13,689 bases of DNA from Candidatus Nanohaloarchaea archaeon (GCA_042218325.1 JBDGRE010000011.1:1-13689), one strand, 5' to 3'. Shown: positions 1,976 through 13,689, counted from the stretch's first letter. A program made the numbers and translations. Notes: generated by a model not told the origin, from the sequence alone.

Positions 1976-3382
1976 ATGGATGTCTACTGGATCGGGGAGC
2001 CTGAGACCGGTGTTTCTGTAGAAGATGTCGGCGGAAAGTCGATGAACGCTATCAGAGCGGCAAGGCTACTCAACGGTAGAGAAATCAACGGTCAGGAGAT
2101 AACTGTTCCTGACGGCTTTGCGGTCAACGGAGAACTCCAAGAAGAGTTCTTAGAAGAACAGAGATGGAAGCACGGATTTCTCGACAGACGTGATGCTATG
2201 AATGTTCTTAGACCTGAGGATGTTGATGACTGGAATTTGCCTCAGACTCATAAAGAAGAACTCCGTGAACACTATGAAAGACTAGAAGACCCTGTAGGAG
2301 TCAGAAGCTCAGGTGTAGCGGAGGACTCAGATGAGAACAACTTTGCAGGAAGATATGAAAGCGTAATTGGAATCACAGGTTCAGATGAACTGATGGAAGG
2401 AGTCTCCGAAGTGCTCGCTAGCCAGTTCAGTTCAAGAGTACAGCAGTACCAGATGGAAATCGGCGAAGAACAAGCTTCTGATCTCAGGCTTCTAATACAG
2501 GAGGCAAAGAACCCTGATGTTTCAGCAGTAGTAGACTCCCGTGCGGATAGCGAAGGCAGAGTAGGTTTTGACTTGAATGAAGGACTTCCTACGACTATCG
2601 TTGATGGTGAGTCCATAGATCAAGCTTTTGCAGATCTTGGAGGTTCGTTATTGGGAGGGTTCTTGGTTTATGATGAAGACGATGATTACTTCTCTAACCC
2701 TAACCGTGACACTAAACATGTTCTAGAAGACGGTGAATTGGTTGAGAGATCCACTGATGTAGAAGGATCTCTTGTTGAGAGCGAAGAGCTCGGAGCAGTC
2801 GTTGAGGTTGCCAGACTTCTTGAGGAGGTATCAGGAGAACCAGGAGACCGTTCAGCCAGAGATATGGAAGTAGGTTGGAATAAAGAAGATAATATAGTTT
2901 ATATTTTCCAAGATAGGCCTGTACCTGGTGAAGACGTGACTGAAGCCGAGGAATTGCCTGATATTGCTGAAGAGTATGTTGTCGCTGAGTCTCAGCAGGT
3001 TTCCGGAGGCCCTGAACTTGTCCACTACGAGGATATACCTGCGGTAGTTGTTGACGATTCGACTCCAAATCCTGGGCCGGATGAAGAGGCATACAACATC
3101 AAAGACTACGATCTAACAGAACTCGATGAGGAACTGGGAGAATACGTGCTGATAACGGAGAACTATAACGAGAGACTTCATGCTGACGCCGATCCTGAAG
3201 TTGTAGTTGGAACAGACTCTGGCTTTGGAGGACACCTGATAAACATACTTGGAAATGAGGGGGTCGATACAGAGTACATCAGCTTTCTGGGAGAAGATCT
3301 CAGCGAGATAGATACCTATGACGAAATCGGTGTAGCACTTAACGGCCTTGAAGGCCTTGTATACATGGAGGAAGATAACTGA
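1976..3382 (+). CDS. PEP synthase/PPDK-family dikinase-like protein: N-terminal ATP-grasp domain + degenerate swivelling phospho-His domain, no PEP/pyruvate-binding barrel (468 aa)
   Basis: PPDK_N motifs in order: VGGKSMN, VPDGFAV, VGVRSSGVAEDSDENNFAGRYES, LLIQE, GLPTTIVDG, RDMEVGW, IFQDRP. C-terminal GTDSGFGGH420LINILGNEG aligns to TxxGGxxSHAAIxARExG. Protein ends about 50 aa after the His. Confidence 0.85.
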   Translation: MDVYWIGEPETGVSVEDVGGKSMNAIRAARLLNGREINGQEITVPDGFAVNGELQEEFLEEQRWKHGFLDRRDAMNVLRPEDVDDWNLPQTHKEELREHYERLEDPVGVRSSGVAEDSDENNFAGRYESVIGITGSDELMEGVSEVLASQFSSRVQQYQMEIGEEQASDLRLLIQEAKNPDVSAVVDSRADSEGRVGFDLNEGLPTTIVDGESIDQAFADLGGSLLGGFLVYDEDDDYFSNPNRDTKHVLEDGELVERSTDVEGSLVESEELGAVVEVARLLEEVSGEPGDRSARDMEVGWNKEDNIVYIFQDRPVPGEDVTEAEELPDIAEEYVVAESQQVSGGPELVHYEDIPAVVVDDSTPNPGPDEEAYNIKDYDLTELDEELGEYVLITENYNERLHADADPEVVVGTDSGFGGHLINILGNEGVDTEYISFLGEDLSEIDTYDEIGVALNGLEGLVYMEEDN

Positions 3383-5559
3383 TGGTAGAGTTTGATTCCG
3401 TAACTATAAATGAAGATGAAAGAGATAGAGATCCTATAGCACACCCAGTAAGGGAGGAAGAAGAACTTGAGAGAGCTGTAGAGCAGATGAGTTCTGTCGA
3501 AGATGAGAATTTCGAGTCCGAGGTTCTGGCTCTTAGAAACAACTTAGACGAGTTCGTCAGAAGGCGTGTAGGCAACCACAACACGCATATTGGGCTGATG
3601 AATAATCCTACGGTCAACGAGGTAGAGATTGACGGAGAAAACTATCAAGTGGTCGGAGAGCGTTTCTTTGAGATGAACCAGTTCCCAGAGTTCGGTGATG
3701 TAGGTGAGATTAGATGGACTGCTCTCGCACCGCAGGACTCATGGGGCATGGAAACACCGATAAACAGAGGAGAACACGCAGTAGGAAGAGGAAGACAGAT
3801 CGAGGCCTACCAGGTCACACTTGATGGAGAACCTCTCAACCCCGGTGAAGTCGGAGCCCTCTCTCAGGATGTCAGGATTTCCCAGGAAACAGAACAGGAT
3901 TTTACACTGGACGCTCCTAGGATAATCGCTGAGTATGATTCGCTGACCGAGGCGGTCGAGAGCGAAAATATAACTCGGGAAGAGTTCGAGGAAGAGTTAA
4001 GATCTGCTCAGCATCGTGGCATGGTGACTGAAGACCTTGACATCACTTTGAAGGGCTGGATGTCCTTTATCGATACTAACGCAAGAGGTATTGCTGCTCT
4101 TGAACAGCTTGACGGGAGTCGGGAGACTGTCGACCTTGGAGGGTTCAGACCTTCTTATGTACCTCCTTTCGGTAGTTTGGAAGGTGCTGTGACTTCTTCA
4201 GGACGCCTGAGTTCCGCTATATTCAGTGATGGAGATGCTTTATTTGCTACAGGTTCAGATGCAGAGGTTGATTATGTTGAAGGAGTTCTGGATGTTGAAA
4301 ATGATGCTTACCGTGAAGAACTGGAAGCCATTATGGGCGATCTTGAGTCCGTAAATCTACATGACCAGCCTGGCGGCAGGATAGGACTGAGGGATGCTCT
4401 CGGTGTATTTATCGAGGGTTATGATGGCGGAGAGGCTGTCAGTATAGGAGAGAATGTTGAAAGAGGTAGCGACGAGGAGGACTATCTCCATGATCTCATA
4501 GATGAAGGACTTGCCGGTATAGAAGAGTCGAACCTGGAAGACATAACGATTTCTCTGGATGAGGAGTTGGAGCAGGAACTTCAGGAAATGGGTTACTCTG
4601 TAGAGGAGATTGAGCAACGTTTAGAAGAGGCATCCCAAGGCCTAACTGCTGCTGAAGATGATGGATTCATGTTCGGTGGTGGAGATTACAGTCTGAACTA
4701 TGAAGGTCTTGATGATCCTCTATACGAGCTCTTTGCTACTGAGCTTGAGGAGTTGAACAGAAGACAAGTCAATCCCGATGAAGACCGAGATATGGATGGC
4801 TCCGCTATAATGGTTCCTAATCTGATGCTCGTTGAATGCATGGATGAACTGGAGACTCACGGCTTTGACTGGGAAATGGTCTCCACATACAGACCAGATG
4901 GAGATGATGAGTTCTTCGGTGCCGACATAGAAGCCCAGTTTGAGGAAGAAAGAGAGGATCTCTGGGGAGATGTCGATTATTACGGTCATGAGGATATTTA
5001 CCAAGAGGGGAATATACGCAGTCCAAAGGAGATGAGCCGAGAGGTTCGGGGTCTCCTGAGAGCTATGGATGATGAAGATATTATACAGATAAATCAGAAA
5101 CAGATACCTGACGCTGTAAAGCTTCAGGTCGATACTTCAAGCGATCACTATGAACCGCTTCAGGAGGCACTGCCGGACTCAGGAGAAAGCTTTGAGAATG
5201 GCGAAGCCACCTACGAAGTAGGGCCTGAAGAGAGCCAAGCAGACTCCCTACTACTGACAGTTATGCAGGACAACGAAGCCGTTGAAGACTATGAAATCGA
5301 TGAAACAGAGGAATGGGAGTTAGAATACAACAGAGAAGCTATGGCTATGTTCGACTATGAAATAGATGCCAGCATCGACTCAGTTAGAATAGCAGACGAA
5401 CCAGTTGTCCTTGCATCACTTTACGTCACAGAAGAAATGGAATATGAATCCAACGAGGAATTGGAAAGAGCATCAGAAGCAATAAGTCCTTTCAACGGAG
5501 AAAATATTCCCTATGAATCAGACAGAGCGACATTTGAAACCGAATTTCAATTAGACTAA
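3382..5559 (+). CDS. Large, extremely acidic hypothetical protein (725 aa)
   Basis: Long ORF translationally coupled to the upstream gene (TGATG overlap, GGAGG upstream). Only 4 Lys by manual count. No signal peptide, TM segment or recognisable motif seen. Confidence 0.85.
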   Translation: MVEFDSVTINEDERDRDPIAHPVREEEELERAVEQMSSVEDENFESEVLALRNNLDEFVRRRVGNHNTHIGLMNNPTVNEVEIDGENYQVVGERFFEMNQFPEFGDVGEIRWTALAPQDSWGMETPINRGEHAVGRGRQIEAYQVTLDGEPLNPGEVGALSQDVRISQETEQDFTLDAPRIIAEYDSLTEAVESENITREEFEEELRSAQHRGMVTEDLDITLKGWMSFIDTNARGIAALEQLDGSRETVDLGGFRPSYVPPFGSLEGAVTSSGRLSSAIFSDGDALFATGSDAEVDYVEGVLDVENDAYREELEAIMGDLESVNLHDQPGGRIGLRDALGVFIEGYDGGEAVSIGENVERGSDEEDYLHDLIDEGLAGIEESNLEDITISLDEELEQELQEMGYSVEEIEQRLEEASQGLTAAEDDGFMFGGGDYSLNYEGLDDPLYELFATELEELNRRQVNPDEDRDMDGSAIMVPNLMLVECMDELETHGFDWEMVSTYRPDGDDEFFGADIEAQFEEEREDLWGDVDYYGHEDIYQEGNIRSPKEMSREVRGLLRAMDDEDIIQINQKQIPDAVKLQVDTSSDHYEPLQEALPDSGESFENGEATYEVGPEESQADSLLLTVMQDNEAVEDYEIDETEEWELEYNREAMAMFDYEIDASIDSVRIADEPVVLASLYVTEEMEYESNEELERASEAISPFNGENIPYESDRATFETEFQLD

Positions 5560-5589: not shown

Positions 5590-6255
5590 ATGCGAAGAAA
5601 CACTGAGAAACCCGCAAATGTTCGAGACCAAAGTGAGAGAGCAGAAGAAATCGCAGGATTTATCGAAGAAGTCGAACATCCGCATATAGATGAATTTGTC
5701 GATAGAGTTGCTGAAGGCGGGAAAGTTCTTGACCTTGGCTGTGGACATGGCAAACACGTGGACTACTTCATCCAGCACGGACTCGAAGCAGAAGGCGTAG
5801 ACTTAGCGGAAGGTATGCTGGATGAAAGAGAAAGGAGAGGGAAGAAAGGTACTTACTACGAGCAGGACTTCAGAAACCTTCCAGAGGACAAATTCGGCGA
5901 TAATGAGTACGATGCTCTCTGGGCTAACGCCGCACTGAAATTCTACCCAAAGCAGGAGATGAAGAAAACTTTACAGGAGTGGGATCGAGTTCTCAAACCG
6001 GGTGGAGAGTTCTACACCTCATTCAAAGTAAAAGGAAGCCAAGAAGACTATGACTGGCTACAGGGAGATGAAGATAGTAACGAGTTCGTCCAGAGAGATG
6101 GTGAAGATTATCCGAGATACCTTCTTGACTCAGTAGAAGAAGCTGAACAGATGCTTGAAGACCAGGGCTATGAAGTCCAGGAAACCTATGTCAGCGACGA
6201 CCACACCGACTACGATATTCAGGTCGTTAACCTGTTCGCAAGGAAGGAGGAGTAA
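5590..6255 (+). CDS. Class I SAM-dependent methyltransferase (221 aa)
   Basis: Motif I KVLDLGCGHG, post-I GVDLAEGML, QDFRNL, YDALWANAAL, RVLKPGG. Confidence 0.92.
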   Translation: MRRNTEKPANVRDQSERAEEIAGFIEEVEHPHIDEFVDRVAEGGKVLDLGCGHGKHVDYFIQHGLEAEGVDLAEGMLDERERRGKKGTYYEQDFRNLPEDKFGDNEYDALWANAALKFYPKQEMKKTLQEWDRVLKPGGEFYTSFKVKGSQEDYDWLQGDEDSNEFVQRDGEDYPRYLLDSVEEAEQMLEDQGYEVQETYVSDDHTDYDIQVVNLFARKEE

Positions 6256-6258
6256 ATA

Positions 6259-7170
6259 ATGAGTTCTGAAGCTTACCCCGAAGATCTTGTAGAAAAGGCA
6301 GGAGAGCACGAGTTTGAAGATATTAGAGATGAAGCTGTCGAGGATCTAACGGAAATGCTCGAAGTAGACAGCGAAGCAGTACCTGAAATACCTGTTGAAA
6401 CTGAAGAAAGAGGAACTACAGGTGGTGCAAGTTACGAAAACGGCACTATGACCGTAGACCTCGCACCAGACCTCTCAGACGAACCAAGCTGGGTAGAAAC
6501 AGAACATCTACAAGCAGAAGGCGTCTATGAAGAAGTAAACCATATTCTCGCAGAAGACATAATTGAACACGAGACAGGACAGCAGAGAACAAGTAGAGAA
6601 GACCGGACTTACTGGGATAACGCAGCCAACGAACTGCTCGGAACAATCTACAAATGGGGAGATAACTGGGGATTCAATCGACCTTTAGAGAAAGCAGATA
6701 CAAGACTTTCGAAAGCATCAGAAAGACTCGACCAATCCCTGGCAGCTATAAACAGAGACTTTGAAGACCGAGACCTATCCGAAGACGAGAACCTTGACGA
6801 ATACTGTAACAGACACGGAAAAGTAGAACAGGAACTCCTAGGAGACATAATACACTTCATAGGTTACAAGGTCTCAGAAGAGGCAAAGGATCAGGATTAT
6901 GATCCTGCTGAAGTAGTCAGGATGAGCTACGACCAGCTGAGAGAAGAATTTTCGGAAGAAGTAGAACAAGCAGAAGAACAACTCAGAGAAGAATACGGAG
7001 TCCTTGTAGACCTTGATAGAAAAATACAGAGTGAAGAAGGATTCGGATTCTTCGTACAGACCGGTGAAAACGAATACAAGTCCAGAGGAGTTCTCGAAGG
7101 CTACGAACAACACGGCAGACAATTCTACACCTGGGGAGAAGACGAACTGCCTGAAAGGGGGAGGAACTAA
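6259..7170 (+). CDS. Acidic hypothetical protein, possible zincin/gluzincin-like fold with EExxH variant motif (303 aa)
   Basis: GGASYENGTMTVDL strand pair, then VYEEVNHIL (E91-E92-x-x-H95, HExxH with first H as E), then a helix with AANE125LLG as candidate third ligand. Starts 3 nt after the MTase stop, preceded by AGGAGG. Confidence 0.55.
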   Translation: MSSEAYPEDLVEKAGEHEFEDIRDEAVEDLTEMLEVDSEAVPEIPVETEERGTTGGASYENGTMTVDLAPDLSDEPSWVETEHLQAEGVYEEVNHILAEDIIEHETGQQRTSREDRTYWDNAANELLGTIYKWGDNWGFNRPLEKADTRLSKASERLDQSLAAINRDFEDRDLSEDENLDEYCNRHGKVEQELLGDIIHFIGYKVSEEAKDQDYDPAEVVRMSYDQLREEFSEEVEQAEEQLREEYGVLVDLDRKIQSEEGFGFFVQTGENEYKSRGVLEGYEQHGRQFYTWGEDELPERGRN

Positions 7171-7886
7171 TGGCTCTTGATGAGCATGCTCGACAGGAAT
7201 GGCCTGAAACTATAGAAATAGATGGTGAAACCTACGAAGAAGAATCTCTGGGAGCATACAAAAGAGTCTACAGAAGCCTTGATGAGGAAAATGTTGGAGT
7301 AGTTTCAAGTCGAGGAGCTACTTTTGAAGAACAGGCACTACACACAGCAGGGATAATCCAAAACGAGCAAGTTCAGAGAAACAACGGAATAACCACCGCA
7401 ACCACTTATACGCCAGCTAAAGCCGAGGTTGACGGGCAGGCTTATCCTGCTCTTGTCGGAAGTTTCAGAGATGATCTTGTAACTCACGACGAACTGGACG
7501 AAATGCTTGAAGACAAAGGTTTTCAGGAAAGAGTTTACAGGGAAATCTTCCAACCTGTCAAAGAACTTGCGGAAGAAGGCAAGACTACTGCTTCGCCGCT
7601 TGACTTCATAAACATCGATAACAGAAATAGCTCCAATCTGATATTTGACACTCGAAATTTTGGATATAACCCTGCTACAGACGGTTTAGAAGTATTGGAT
7701 AATGGCGAACTTGAACCAAACGGCTACAACGCCTCAGCTACTGTTCCTGAAGCAGACCTCTCCGATCTCCCTTACGCCGAGCCAGAAGACTTCGCATACC
7801 AACGACCACACGATTCACTGGAAGAATTTATCGAAGACAACAAGGTCGACCAGAAAGCCCAGCAAATGATGTCAGACTTGTTTTAG
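7170..7886 (+). CDS. Acidic hypothetical protein, probable degenerate protein-kinase-like (PKL) fold (238 aa)
   Basis: SLGAYKRVYRS (Gly-loop/beta2-like), DTRNFGY (catalytic-loop Asn) and LEVLDNG (DFG-like) in correct order. Beta3 Lys and canonical DxxxxN spacing not evident. TAATG coupling to upstream gene. Confidence 0.55.
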   Translation: MALDEHARQEWPETIEIDGETYEEESLGAYKRVYRSLDEENVGVVSSRGATFEEQALHTAGIIQNEQVQRNNGITTATTYTPAKAEVDGQAYPALVGSFRDDLVTHDELDEMLEDKGFQERVYREIFQPVKELAEEGKTTASPLDFINIDNRNSSNLIFDTRNFGYNPATDGLEVLDNGELEPNGYNASATVPEADLSDLPYAEPEDFAYQRPHDSLEEFIEDNKVDQKAQQMMSDLF

Positions 7887-7934
7887 TATGTAATGTGGTT
7901 TTCCAGAAATTCTTTCTGAAGATTACAGGTTATC

Positions 7935-7966: not shown

Positions 7967-8788
7967 ATGACTTCAGCAGTTGAGGCAGGAATGCCGGAGG
8001 AAAATCCTTTTGGATCGGTTAGAAGCGAGTACGAGAAGCTGAAGAAGATGTATCCAGAAGGAGAGGAGCTAATAGAGGAAGCTGTAAATGTAGTAGCAGA
8101 GGAAAATAGGGAGGAGCTGTTTCAGAACTCCGAAGAATACGTCATAGAACTTCTAAACAGTAATGAAGAGTTCATTAAAAAGATGGACGAGGTCTATGGA
8201 GTTTCCGAAGCCAGTCAATCAGAACTTGTAAGCATACTAAACCAGCTATACTTCGTAGTCAGAAACTCCGTAAGAGGGATGAAAGAGAACCTAGATGACT
8301 ACATTCTCGAACAAGAAGCAAGTTCCGATGCAGTACTTGTAGAGAAAATATTGGATATTTTCGGCAGAGTATTCCACTATGCCTTTGATGAGAGAAACCA
8401 GGAGCCGGTAGAAAGCGTCTCCAAAGCATTTCTGCTATTTGTAAGGCTTATCGCTGCAAGTGAAGGAAAGCTTGATAGAAAAGAACTTTGGAAGGATGCG
8501 GTTCATGTCTCGAAAATGGTGTTAGATGATTTACAGGATGTCAACTTTTTGGTCAGACTCTATAGTTCGGTAGACCAAGTGGCTGCTGAGGAGGCTGAGA
8601 GAGTTGTACGTATCGAGAGGTCTGCCGATCTTTACTTGGAGAGGAAGATGACTGTCTCGAAGGCCGCTGAAGTAGCACAACTTCCTTCTTCAGAACTTCG
8701 GAGTATTTACCAGGATATTGGAGTACCTCTGGAGAGTATTTCTATGAACAAGCAAATGTTGAAGGATGGAATAGATGTCTTACCGTAG
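7967..8788 (+). CDS. Putative antitoxin: long helical N-terminal region + C-terminal UPF0175-like HTH (273 aa)
   Basis: C-terminal ADLYLERKMTVSKAAEVAQLPSSELRSIYQDIGVP fits the UPF0175 pattern (LY..G.IS..KAAE.AG.S..EF...L...GV). Overlaps the downstream PIN gene by 14 nt. Confidence 0.75.
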   Translation: MTSAVEAGMPEENPFGSVRSEYEKLKKMYPEGEELIEEAVNVVAEENREELFQNSEEYVIELLNSNEEFIKKMDEVYGVSEASQSELVSILNQLYFVVRNSVRGMKENLDDYILEQEASSDAVLVEKILDIFGRVFHYAFDERNQEPVESVSKAFLLFVRLIAASEGKLDRKELWKDAVHVSKMVLDDLQDVNFLVRLYSSVDQVAAEEAERVVRIERSADLYLERKMTVSKAAEVAQLPSSELRSIYQDIGVPLESISMNKQMLKDGIDVLP

Positions 8789-9272
8789 CCATATAGTAGC
8801 TGATGCCTCGTTCCTCATAGCATTCGACAAGTGTGATGCTTTCAAGCACTTGAAGAAATATGCGGAGCAGAAGAACTTGCAGATACATACAACGGAGAGA
8901 ATCAAATCTGAGCTTCAGACCGTTGATGAAGATAATATAGATTTTCTGGAAGTAGAGAAGGTACATCTAACCAACTACAAGTACGATAAATCCAAGCTCA
9001 GTAAATCAGATGCATCAGTTCTGAAGATTGCGGAAGAGAACGACTGGATTATAGCAGAAGATGAACGCTACCTCTACATGGCTGCGAAAGAAAAAGACCT
9101 GGAAATAACTCGATCTGCGTCCATGCTAATGAAACTACTATCTGAGGGAATCATAAACAAGAAAGAATACGGCCAGATCGCCGAATGCTTCATTAAAGAC
9201 CTCAACCTCGAAAAGGAAATAGAAGAGGAGATTAAGAACTACCCTGAGAAAATAGAAAAACAAGAGGTCTGA
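8775..9272 (+). CDS. PIN-domain protein, VapC/DUF3368-like putative ribonuclease toxin (165 aa)
   Basis: IVADASFLI (first catalytic Asp), TTERIKSEL (Glu), LSKSDASVLKIA, IIAEDER, and a C-terminal LMKLLSEGII helix typical of DUF3368-type PINs paired with UPF0175. Confidence 0.85.
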   Translation: MSYRSHIVADASFLIAFDKCDAFKHLKKYAEQKNLQIHTTERIKSELQTVDEDNIDFLEVEKVHLTNYKYDKSKLSKSDASVLKIAEENDWIIAEDERYLYMAAKEKDLEITRSASMLMKLLSEGIINKKEYGQIAECFIKDLNLEKEIEEEIKNYPEKIEKQEV

Positions 9273-10606: not shown

Positions 10607-11467
10607 TCACCTGTCAAATTCGATTCTATCTCCTGTGGCTGTTGGCGGTTTTGTGCATTTGAGGTAAGTTCCGTAGTAGAGGTCGAACTGGTCTGACTTC
10701 GGTTTCTTTTCTACTTCTCCTGTTACAGTGTATTCGTTGGCGTGTTGGAAACTCATCGCATCAGAGTACTGATCGCATTCCAGTTTGATCTTGTAGCCTC
10801 CTCTGGTCTGTAGAAGCGGTTCAAGTGAAAGTGTATTGTAGTAGCCTGTTACAGTTACTTCTTCTCCCTCGTAGTCGTTTGGATTAAGTGCTACCTGTTT
10901 GAGTGTGGTCTTTGTCGGCCCTATGCTTTCGCCTTCTTTGGCCCAGTCTTCACACTGGATACTTGCTACTTCTTCAGCTGTATCGGGTACGCAGCTTCCT
11001 CCAGCGTCTTGTAGGCATTTTCCTACAGGCACTTTCTGGTCGAATCCGTAGTAGTATTCGTTTCCATCTACCTGACATTCACATCGCTTGTACGTTCCTA
11101 CTTCTCCCTTGACCTTGATTTCTTCGTTGTGGGGTACTCGGCAGCTCTTGATGTAAACTCTGGAATCGTTTTCGCCTTTAAGGTAGCTTTCTCCTACGCC
11201 TCTGGCGAGATTTATTGTTCCTGTTGTTCCTTTAACCGTCATCTTCTGTCCGTCGTATTGTTCTATATTTGATGTGATCTGTTCTGGAGTCTTGACAGGG
11301 TTAAGTGCGTCTGTCAGCTGTGACAGGTCGTACTGGTATTCGGAAGGCTGGAATATATCGGAGAAGTTATCTGTTGGTGTTGCTGCTTGTAGCCCGATTC
11401 CGAGTAGTATTACGGCTAATATCCATTTGTATGGTATCCCGAAGAATTGATTTTTCCGCCTCCCCAT
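10607..11467 (-). CDS. Secreted or membrane-anchored protein with two OB-fold-like repeats and 8 Cys (286 aa)
   Basis: Basic N-terminus plus hydrophobic segment (WILAVILLGIGLQAA). Internal repeats TPEQITSNIEQYDGQKMTVKGT and TTLKQVALNPNDYEGEEVTVTGY are typical starts of extracellular OB-fold domains. Confidence 0.75.
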   Translation of the reverse strand: MGRRKNQFFGIPYKWILAVILLGIGLQAATPTDNFSDIFQPSEYQYDLSQLTDALNPVKTPEQITSNIEQYDGQKMTVKGTTGTINLARGVGESYLKGENDSRVYIKSCRVPHNEEIKVKGEVGTYKRCECQVDGNEYYYGFDQKVPVGKCLQDAGGSCVPDTAEEVASIQCEDWAKEGESIGPTKTTLKQVALNPNDYEGEEVTVTGYYNTLSLEPLLQTRGGYKIKLECDQYSDAMSFQHANEYTVTGEVEKKPKSDQFDLYYGTYLKCTKPPTATGDRIEFDR

Positions 11468-13672: not shown

Positions 13673-13689
13673 ATGGAAATAAGACGCTA
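13673..13689 (+). CDS. Probable start of next gene (MEIRR...), truncated by window edge
   Basis: ATG 4 nt after the S66 stop. MEIRR is a common GNAT-type N-terminus, but only 5 full codons are visible. Confidence 0.3.

Follow-up and report, generated by a model that had tools for sequence, protein, structure and literature searches.

Why should a handful of proteins in a nanohaloarchaeon contain almost no lysine, while the products of genes on either side contain ordinary amounts of it? This question is raised by a contig of 13,689 nucleotides (nt) from Candidatus Nanohaloarchaea archaeon (GCA_042218325.1, JBDGRE010000011.1:1-13689), which we analyzed over its full length and refer to as the window. 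At the core of its lysine-poor block lie two overlapping genes on the plus strand, one for a phosphoenolpyruvate (PEP)-synthase-like enzyme of 468 amino acids (aa; 1976..3382) and one for a hyperacidic partner of 725 aa (3382..5559), which together we call the module. An earlier note on this DNA had suggested that the products are tuned for another compartment, such as the host cytoplasm or brine, and reach it by an export route independent of signal peptides. We arrive at a different explanation, to which we assign a probability of about 0.5: the lysine loss would be an extreme form of salt-in adaptation in the symbiont's own cytoplasm, kept by selection in a native two-gene module.

The lysine counts given in the earlier note are reproduced exactly, with 4/725, 7/468, 9/303, 7/238 and 14/221 in the five proteins of the cluster, compared with 26/230 in a fragment of arginyl-tRNA synthetase (ArgS). 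In the same order, the cluster proteins contain 0.55, 1.5, 3.0, 2.9 and 6.3% lysine (K), and in the Lys-poor ones the ratio K/(K+R) is 0.09-0.24. The four lysines of the 725-aa protein stand at residues 224, 549, 573 and 580, so that stretches of 324 aa and 223 aa are free of K; a run of 324 aa would arise by chance with a probability of ~3e-10, given how frequent K is in the genome. The description of the flanking genes as Lys-rich holds for a PIN-like open reading frame (ORF) with 13.3% K, but not for the two GNAT proteins (6.6 and 7.3%) and the S66 protein (6.8%), which are average for such genomes.

How unusual these values are depends on the background. The window is the whole of contig C3 of a 35-contig, 1.07-Mb metagenome-assembled genome (MAG), here G000. 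Its GC content is 0.446 and its GC content at third codon positions (GC3) 0.44, compared with 0.55-0.58 and ~0.73 in most other G000 contigs; GC3 is below 0.5 in 12 of 13 C3 genes of at least 150 aa, but in only 27 of 727 in the rest of G000. Furthermore, G000 has a full-length ArgS gene of native composition on contig C24, whose product is only 41% identical to the ArgS fragment of C3. The latter is encoded by the 3' part of a gene cut by the contig end (1..750, plus strand; Pfam DALR_1 and tRNA-synt_1d; 27/249 Lys, 26/230 from the first Met) and is 96% identical to its counterpart on contig C16 of G006, a genome of another genus, and 97% identical to one on G027:C121, whereas typical best matches between G006 and G000 are 61% identical, with a 95th percentile of 81%. 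In synonymous codon usage, all 15 C3 ORFs are closer to G006 than to G000, although C3 is distinct from G006 itself (GAA share 0.66-0.68 versus 0.46). Judged from these sequence features, C3 probably belongs to an organism of ~45-47% GC near G006 and is misfiled in a 57% GC MAG, so that a genome-wide comparison inside G000 would use the wrong background. Because C3 is compositionally unlike G000, and because of the second ArgS, we took G006 as the better reference. The set comprises 743.5 kb (~74%) of G006, with a GC content of 0.472 and ORFs called by our own scoring script; proteins of at least 100 aa that passed a crude hydropathy filter were counted as soluble (n=511).

The soluble proteins of G006 have a median K content of 6.5%, with the 5th, 1st and 0.5th percentiles at 2.78, 1.76 and 0.96%. 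The 725-aa protein falls below the 0.5th percentile and the 468-aa protein below the 1st, while the 303-aa and 238-aa proteins lie near the 5th and the 221-aa methyltransferase at the median. Pooled over the five genes, K amounts to 2.10%, below the value of every five-gene window of adjacent genes in G006 (n=469, minimum 3.08). For the core pair, the pooled value is 0.92%, and among 631 two-gene windows a single one is as low. Against G000 without C3 (median K 4.7%), the values are less extreme, with 6 of 808 five-gene and 7 of 899 two-gene windows being equally low. The lysine depletion of the cluster is confirmed and statistically robust. The earlier note had also considered that lysine content might simply fall within a normal unimodal distribution; in both G006 and G000, the distribution is indeed unimodal, with a low tail and no second mode, yet the pair is an extreme outlier in it.

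The depletion had been described as coming without an obvious shift in GC. Total GC is indeed alike in the core pair (0.467) and the flanks (0.438), but this conceals two opposite shifts: GC at first codon positions is 0.646 versus 0.553, because GAN and GGN codons replace AAR, while GC3 is 0.414 versus 0.457. Compared with soluble G006 proteins, only K departs strongly (z -2.3). Alanine (5.95 versus 5.71%), arginine (5.20 versus 5.38%) and the FYMIN residues without K (18.4 versus 19.7) are close to the G006 values; Asp, Glu, Gly and Val are raised, with Glu at 15.9% and D+E at 25-27%, Ile and Phe are slightly lowered, and Asn, Ser and Thr are native. Per residue, the two proteins of the core pair carry a net charge of -0.19 and -0.20, and those of the flanking ORFs one of -0.02 to -0.12. 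Synonymous choice equals that of the flanks (GAA 0.66 versus 0.68, AAA 0.61 versus 0.57) and lies within the G006 range. Arginine is encoded by AGA in 60% and by AGG in 14% of cases, AGA being one step from AAA.

A halobacterial donor would be expected to leave CGN codons for arginine, Ala-rich proteins and GC-rich third positions. This composition is absent here, given the 5.95% Ala, 15.9% Glu, GC3 of 0.414 and 74% AGR codons for Arg. All homologs found are likewise Glu-rich and Ala-poor, with 3.5-6.1% Ala in the strong members of the 725-aa family. Nanohaloarchaeal proteomes have been described as Glu-rich and haloarchaeal ones as Ala-rich (10.1101/2025.02.15.638363). With regard to a halobacterial or haloviral origin, which the earlier note had named as a possible refutation of its proposal, no relative was found: a tblastn search with the 725-aa protein returned no match in 72,556 plasmids, 50,697 phage records and IMG/VR contigs, sets outside which halobacterial chromosomes fall, and a scan of genome contigs for related loci yielded nothing beyond one spurious hit of 28%, to a Curtobacterium record. 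For the 468-aa protein, only generic PpsA-type matches of 25-29% identity were retrieved, those from Haloarcula and Natrinema being no closer than those from Listeria and Rhodococcus. The close homologs of both proteins all occur in relatives of the window's genome or among metagenome proteins. Given the native composition and the lack of a halobacterial, plasmid or viral relative in these searches, a recent import appears unlikely, and the view that these are resident genes, not recent arrivals from a high-GC haloarchaeon, is supported by synonymous usage, AGR codons and the Glu-rich, Ala-poor make-up.

The first protein of the module has 7 lysines and a net charge of -88, and is predicted to combine an ATP-grasp domain with a phospho-His swivel domain. 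Its residues 16-330 match PF01326 with 89.9 bits (cut-off 27), and a profile of 11 family members retrieves PEP synthase 8a8e from the PDB with an E-value of 2.8e-43. A second stretch of this profile aligns weakly to the swivel domain (8a8e residues 400-482; 18 bits, independent E 0.011) and places H420 opposite the catalytic His of 'GGrtSH', PF00391 itself not being reported at E <=0.01. Invariant in the family are GGK21, RSS110-112, QE175-176, D296/E298 and H420. In Pfam searches, the PEP/pyruvate-binding barrel PF02896 was found neither in this protein, which ends after the swivel domain, nor in the 725-aa protein; a full-length PpsA encoded beside the module in G019 matches it with 201.8 bits. 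That PEP synthase gene (G019:C18, L031, 4077-6608) lies directly upstream of the module, and its product carries an extra C-terminal winged-helix domain, DUF2582.

The second gene starts in an overlap with the stop of the first, and its product, with a net charge of -148, belongs to a family that has no Pfam model. It shows no match to Pfam, NCBIfam, PADLOC or PHROG, and no usable match in the ESM Atlas. A conserved N-terminal domain of ~250 aa (invariant R60, H69, G92-E93, E131-H132 and T222-L223) and a C-terminal region of ~60 aa, likewise conserved, flank an acidic middle part that varies. With a profile of the N-terminal domain, HMMER finds 46 family members (E <=0.001) among 1.84 billion representative proteins; in a Pfam scan of 14 representatives, 13 were without a family and P0057 gave a sub-threshold Lactamase_B_2 match. 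A model of the N-terminal domain (AF2, pLDDT 71) has no Foldseek match in the PDB at E <=0.001, and VIA-align points to a winged-helix-like patch at residues 174-232 (Z ~7, root-mean-square deviation (rmsd) ~2, 59 aligned), a weak match to a common arrangement. A complex prediction for the 468-aa family with the partner's N-terminal domain scored 0.00, which has no bearing either way. The partner may supply the missing acceptor-binding part of the enzyme, or may itself be the target.

The module is patchily distributed and occurs in 5 of 60 relatives. In all five other loci, namely in G015, G023, G019, G014 and a 37.5-kb metagenome contig, the homolog of the 725-aa protein follows that of the 468-aa protein, with one inserted ORF in G015 (L029). 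Its surroundings elsewhere include genes for MetRS, a class I aminoacyl-tRNA synthetase of the Ile/Leu/Met/Val kind, eRF1, FttA, Mre11/Rad50-like proteins and a Mur ligase, and a proteasome subunit gene in G023. In G014 and in the metagenome contig (L053), a PEBP-family gene is found next to the module or close by. Low lysine content accompanies the pair: six homologs of the 725-aa protein (32-96% identity) contain 0.55-1.8% K, and nine homologs of the 468-aa protein (50-99% identity) contain 0.5-2.3%. In four relatives, the pair (468-aa/725-aa homolog) has K contents of 1.9/3.2, 1.5/2.0, 2.9/2.2 and 3.0/4.4%, mostly below those of neighboring genes and at local GC contents of 0.44-0.575, and in the metagenome contig it has 0.8/0.7% between neighbors at 4.9% and 11.0%. 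To judge from these comparisons, the lack of lysine is passed on within these protein families and is apparently maintained across unrelated chromosomal contexts. The wider 725-aa family fits in with this. Among its 46 representatives, the 24 strongest are all hyperacidic (D+E ~23-28%) and contain 0.6-5.3% K (median 2.2), whereas five distant, non-acidic members (790-900 aa, D+E 14.6-16.4%) contain 8.6-10.6%. Because the acidic members are Lys-poor and the distant ones of ordinary acidity are not, the family appears to have lost lysine along with becoming halophilic, and the branch of the window would have gone furthest.

These observations can be joined into the explanation that we favor. The pair would be translationally coupled, a truncated PEP-synthase-like dikinase followed by its 725-aa hyperacidic partner. 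In the manner of PEP synthase, the enzyme would be phosphorylated by ATP at His420 and hand the phosphoryl group on to a substrate that is held by the partner or forms part of it. Both proteins would act in the KCl-rich cytoplasm of the symbiont, and in both the acidification that goes with a salt-in strategy would have been driven to an extreme by selection, with Lys removed, Arg held at genome level and Asp, Glu and Gly gained. Such an extreme would be reached most easily by accessory proteins under weak constraint.

The last point can be compared with the genome at large. In G006, K contents of at most 3% are found in 26 of 169 soluble proteins without a homolog in G000, but in only 4 of 309 with one (~12-fold; Fisher p 3e-9); limited to proteins of at least 200 aa with D+E of at least 15%, the contrast is 11 of 84 versus 3 of 193. 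A homolog was defined by E <1e-10 and coverage of at least 60%, its absence by no match at 1e-5, with 33 weak or partial cases left out; the genomes compared are related and hence not independent. Between orthologs of G006 and G000, K content correlates with a Spearman coefficient of 0.66 (n=309), which marks it as a lasting characteristic of the individual protein; the Lys-poor tail consists mainly of accessory proteins. Among short, acidic, Lys-poor ORFs of G000, 11 of 12 scanned have no Pfam family. The class of Lys-poor, signal-less, lineage-specific proteins predicted by the earlier note thus exists as an enrichment, but in the form of a tail and not of a second mode. Large surface-type proteins of G000 also appear to be Lys-poor, because two 1194-aa ORFs without a Pfam match (G000:C2:70363-78270) have 14 lysines each (1.2%), one of them with an N-terminus resembling a signal peptide by eye.

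Several points weigh against a purely halophilic cause. Acidity alone does not predict lysine loss and was rejected as its sole cause, given that the correlation of K with D+E in soluble proteins is close to nil (r -0.16 in G006 and -0.03 in G000). At 0.55%, the K content of the 725-aa protein lies far beyond the general trend of accessory proteins with at most 3%, so this trend may not be the whole cause. The accessory counts are based on our own gene calls over 74% of G006, in which spurious ORFs may inflate the class without homologs. The methyltransferase has an ordinary K content of 6.3% despite lying inside the block. Lastly, the role of the partner is conjectural, as fold searches gave only the weak winged-helix-like patch.

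In the same lineage, lysine has been purged from other proteins, and some of these handle lysine itself. An operon on G000:C32:553-3864 (L057) encodes a class II lysyl-tRNA synthetase (LysRS; NF001756, 594.8 bits versus a cut-off of 468) with 5 lysines in 479 aa, DapF (TIGR00652, 265 versus 115) with 1/283 and a 344-aa ORF without a family match with 1/344, all of which rank with the most Lys-poor long soluble proteins of G000. Orthologs lie in L113-L120. Of the 11 LysRS sequences covered, seven, from G000 and six other Nanosalinaceae genomes, are almost Lys-free, with counts of 5/479, 8/479, 4/479, 3/484, 3/482, 1/486 and 3/481, and adjoining DapA-like genes have 3/336, 4/330 and 3/313 (0.9-1.2%); four more distant LysRS orthologs contain 2.9-10.4% K. 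The Lys-poor proteins of these operons are Glu-rich and Ala-poor and use AGR codons for Arg, LysRS having 7.7-10.0% R. Because LysRS, DapF and the DapA-like proteins are almost Lys-free, the lineage appears to purge lysine from particular proteins by selection. Such a low cognate bias in biosynthetic pathways has been described across >1,800 microbial proteomes (Fasani and Savageau 2014, PMC4209129).

Before weighing the alternatives, the genomic setting needs to be considered. The ArgS gene is followed on the plus strand by genes for tRNA-Arg(TCG) (763-840) and tRNA-Arg(TCT) (842-918), both found by ARAGORN. The ArgS and tRNA-Arg stretch is 90% identical in nucleotide sequence to G006:C16 and 99% to G027:C97, but both blastn and tblastx similarity to these contigs ends at 919-921, so the 3' end of tRNA-Arg(TCT) forms a junction. 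In other hypersaline samples, at least three different sequences follow position 917/918 (loose ends in runs X2, X4 and X5). In one contig from another sample, agreement with the window sets in at 7926, just past the last Lys-poor gene, and is preceded by 203 unlike letters, which makes the right edge of the Lys-poor block a strain-variable junction as well; in a further contig, it sets in at 6247. Across the cluster itself, contigs from four runs (three studies) agree with the window at high identity and differ from it in few letters or none. No integrase family was found by Pfam among the 15 ORFs of the window, which ends at 13689 and may therefore miss the far end of an element, and no direct repeat of at least 12 nt of the tRNA 3' end occurs downstream in direct orientation in the window. 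At the same tRNA, G006:C16 (L026, 3000-13262) carries a different insert of ~10 kb that encodes a tyrosine integrase with a zinc ribbon; the two lowest lysine contents among long soluble proteins in the G006 DNA covered (1/320 and 1/220) also come from there. We regard it as the best explanation of these sequence comparisons that the Lys-poor block would be native nanohaloarchaeal accessory DNA in a strain-variable stretch behind the tRNA-Arg pair.

Some further observations concern this region. The G006 insert also encodes a GNAT protein, an ABC ATPase with permease, a glyoxalase and an MFS transporter; its 1/320-Lys ORF has an RNxxxH-like motif, and its 1/220-Lys ORF a GC3 of 0.70. The tRNA-Arg(TCT) gene of the window is intron-less, while the copies of G006 (L026:2890-2998) and G027 (L027:~330-430) have anticodon-loop insertions of ~36 and ~58 nt, and a contig of run X3 has one of 35 nt at the same place. 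The near-identical ArgS/tRNA stretches in MAGs of two other genera (G006 and G027) imply that at least some such contigs are misbinned, and G000 contains further contigs of low GC (0.42-0.47), namely C20, C21, C26, C27 and C33. Nanosalinaceae have two ArgS types of ~610-625 aa and ~550-560 aa, which are ~40% identical. Both occur together in G006, G013, G033, G052 and G054, only the long one in G001, and the native ArgS of G000 is of the short type.

Among the alternatives to adaptation in the symbiont's own cytoplasm, the one that we take most seriously, while still considering it unlikely, is that the module is made under lysine scarcity, as might befall a symbiont living on the Lys-poor pool of its host, so that selection stripped lysine to spare it. 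The almost Lys-free LysRS, DapF and DapA-like proteins of the same genome family, the low cognate bias described in PMC4209129 and the conservation of the depletion across module orthologs are all in line with this. However, domain and neighbor searches turn up no family of a lysine pathway, be it in the cluster or next to the module in other genomes. LysRS exchanges K for R, whereas the module keeps R at a background level of 5.2% and gains D/E instead; LysA, encoded beside LysRS, is not depleted (3.7-5.1% K); and in two genomes that carry the module, G014 and G015, no copy of this LysRS turned up. A further possibility, an old horizontal gene transfer (HGT) from a Lys-poor donor (Halobacteria, possibly of low GC, or a halovirus), after which the nucleotides ameliorated while the protein composition persisted, is in our view quite improbable. 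It draws on the position of the block behind a tRNA, where synteny with relatives of 90-99% identity ends, on the integrase-bearing G006 insert with its near-Lys-free proteins, on the patchy occurrence of the module in 5 of 60 relatives and on the family member P0038, which has D>E, 9.1% Thr and 0.6% K; transfer between halophilic archaeal groups is also reported (10.1101/2023.07.03.547478). The searches described above, with no plasmid, phage or IMG/VR match for the 725-aa protein and haloarchaeal matches no closer than bacterial ones for the 468-aa protein, weigh against it, as do the Ala-poor, Glu-rich composition and AGA-type Arg codons, which are nanohaloarchaeal, and the persistence of the Lys-poor trait down to 32% identity within the lineage. 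Little credence can be given to the idea that the proteins form lysine deserts, avoiding the residue to escape SAMP-type tagging and the proteasome, GNAT acetylation or self-modification by their own enzyme chemistry. The long K-free runs of the 725-aa protein would suit such an idea, as would ThiF/E1-like genes above the Pfam cut-off in five of six nanohaloarchaeal genomes searched and the proteasome subunit near the module in G023; but ThiF-type E1s also serve sulfur transfer, so that their presence does not establish conjugation in the lineage, and the depletion spans whole proteins of three or four families and not local stretches.

The export proposed by the earlier note has become very unlikely. 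In its favor, a crude hydropathy scan, the only test applied, found no 19-residue window above threshold in the five cluster proteins, whose N-termini are acidic, so that a classical route would be unused. Haloarchaeal proteomes are depleted in K and I and enriched in D and E, as stated in 10.1101/2023.07.03.547478, and the K/(K+R) ratio of the cluster resembles theirs; moreover, one of the two Lys-poor 1194-aa proteins of G000 looks signal-peptide-like. On the other hand, a signal-peptide-like protein of the window itself (10607-11467) has 7.7% K, and in other genomes the module lies among housekeeping genes, none of them for a secretion or contact apparatus. Brine is excluded as a place of action for the 468-aa enzyme because it is an ATP-dependent protein of dikinase type, and because both partners of the symbiosis use a salt-in strategy (10.1101/2025.02.15.638363), the same adaptation is already called for inside the symbiont; beyond lysine, too, the residues bear the signature of the symbiont and not that of the host. 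We therefore find no support for this explanation, in view of the missing signal or membrane segments, the ATP-dependent enzyme, the housekeeping neighbors and the symbiont-type residues. A variant, in which the module is delivered into the haloarchaeal host, a place that offers ATP, and is near-Lys-free to escape host ubiquitin-like tagging and the proteasome, strikes us as hardly credible; if true, the Lys-poor accessory proteins of these symbionts would mark their effector repertoire. Finally, we see next to no chance that the pattern is an artefact of wrong reading frames or of a chimeric assembly of Lys-poor and Lys-rich organisms. In composition, C3 does not fit its MAG, and the binning, at least, is therefore in error; yet cluster and flanks share their synonymous usage, the reading frames stay open over long distances and encode products with family matches, the same proteins occur at 96-99% identity in independent collections, and contigs from several runs and studies cover the cluster, as noted above.

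The three remaining genes of the block, all on the plus strand, do not travel with the core pair. The first (5590..6255) encodes a class I SAM-dependent methyltransferase of 221 aa (Methyltransf_25/11); with PADLOC, it alone in the cluster gives a match, to a methyltransferase model (mad2), and PHROGs yielded nothing specific. The second (6259..7170) encodes the 303-aa protein, for which the label 'zincin-like' is suggested by the predicted fold but not by the sequence. In its model (AF2, pLDDT 88.6), the best VIA-align match is puromycin-sensitive (M1) aminopeptidase (Z 8.5, rmsd 4.2, 179 aligned), zinc peptidases or zincin-type folds fill 28 of the top 30 rows (~170-208 residues aligned, Z 5.7-8.5), and the best Foldseek match is IRAP (E 0.025). 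By contrast, the zinc-binding motif HExxH is absent, and so is HxxEH; the family instead has invariant H95, E99, E103 and E105 on one helix. Its four homologs contain 1.3-3.9% K. The notion of a Lys-specific peptidase that selects for Lys-free neighbors was dropped because, in a setting that lacks the 303-aa gene, the module is just as poor in lysine. The third gene (7170..7886) encodes a 238-aa protein that had been called kinase-like, a label that does not hold, as Guanylate_kin is matched with only 19.7 bits (cut-off 25.2) and there is no P-loop; we leave its family unassigned.

The rest of the contig (7967..13689) is Lys-normal to Lys-rich, with K contents of 5.9-14.3%. Here, ORF and Pfam analyses reveal a 273-aa ORF, the PIN-like ORF of 165 aa, the two GNAT acetyltransferases, an S66 LD-carboxypeptidase and, on the minus strand, two ORFs that look membrane-anchored or secreted. 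The product of 10607-11467 has an N-terminal hydrophobic segment that is signal-peptide-like by eye, no predictor having been run. At 7967-9272, the 273-aa ORF, with a weak C-terminal UPF0175/antitoxin-like match, overlaps the start of the PIN-like ORF, and the two may form a toxin-antitoxin pair.

What is new here is a split PEP-utilizing enzyme with an undescribed partner, together with an amino-acid composition, be it halophilic or lysine-sparing, that is specific to protein families. This module of DPANN halophiles suggests that amino-acid composition can be fixed by selection in individual gene families and persist there whatever the GC content. Furthermore, the near-Lys-free LysRS, DapF and DapA-like proteins in Nanosalinaceae suggest that lysine is a limiting currency for symbionts of Lys-poor hosts; if so, Lys-poorness would be a marker, readable from sequence alone, for starvation-proof genes.

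Compared with known systems, the 468-aa protein shares with PEP synthase, PPDK and rifampicin phosphotransferase an N-terminal ATP-grasp domain (PF01326), and a short stretch of it aligns weakly to the swivel domain, with an invariant His at the catalytic position. Unlike these PEP-utilizing enzymes, it has neither the PF02896 barrel nor a rifampicin-type substrate domain, and its invariable companion is a separate 500-900-aa protein from an undescribed family. Lysine deserts are reportedly known from eukaryotic ubiquitin/proteasome components and from pupylating bacteria; the module has in common with them long conserved Lys-free stretches, but differs in that whole proteins are depleted and no link to a tagging system is apparent. 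With the genes of low cognate bias, as described in PMC4209129, it shares the conserved, protein-specific near-absence of one amino acid, while having no recognizable role in lysine supply and no compensation by Arg. The closest likeness in composition is to the salt-in signature of Halobacteria, with high D+E, very low K, Arg retained, less Ile and Phe, and more Gly and Val. However, while that signature marks Halobacteria, the trait described here is limited to a few families in a genome whose median soluble protein has ~6.5% K, and the background on which it is set is not the Ala-rich one of haloarchaea but Glu-rich, Ala-poor and nanohaloarchaeal.

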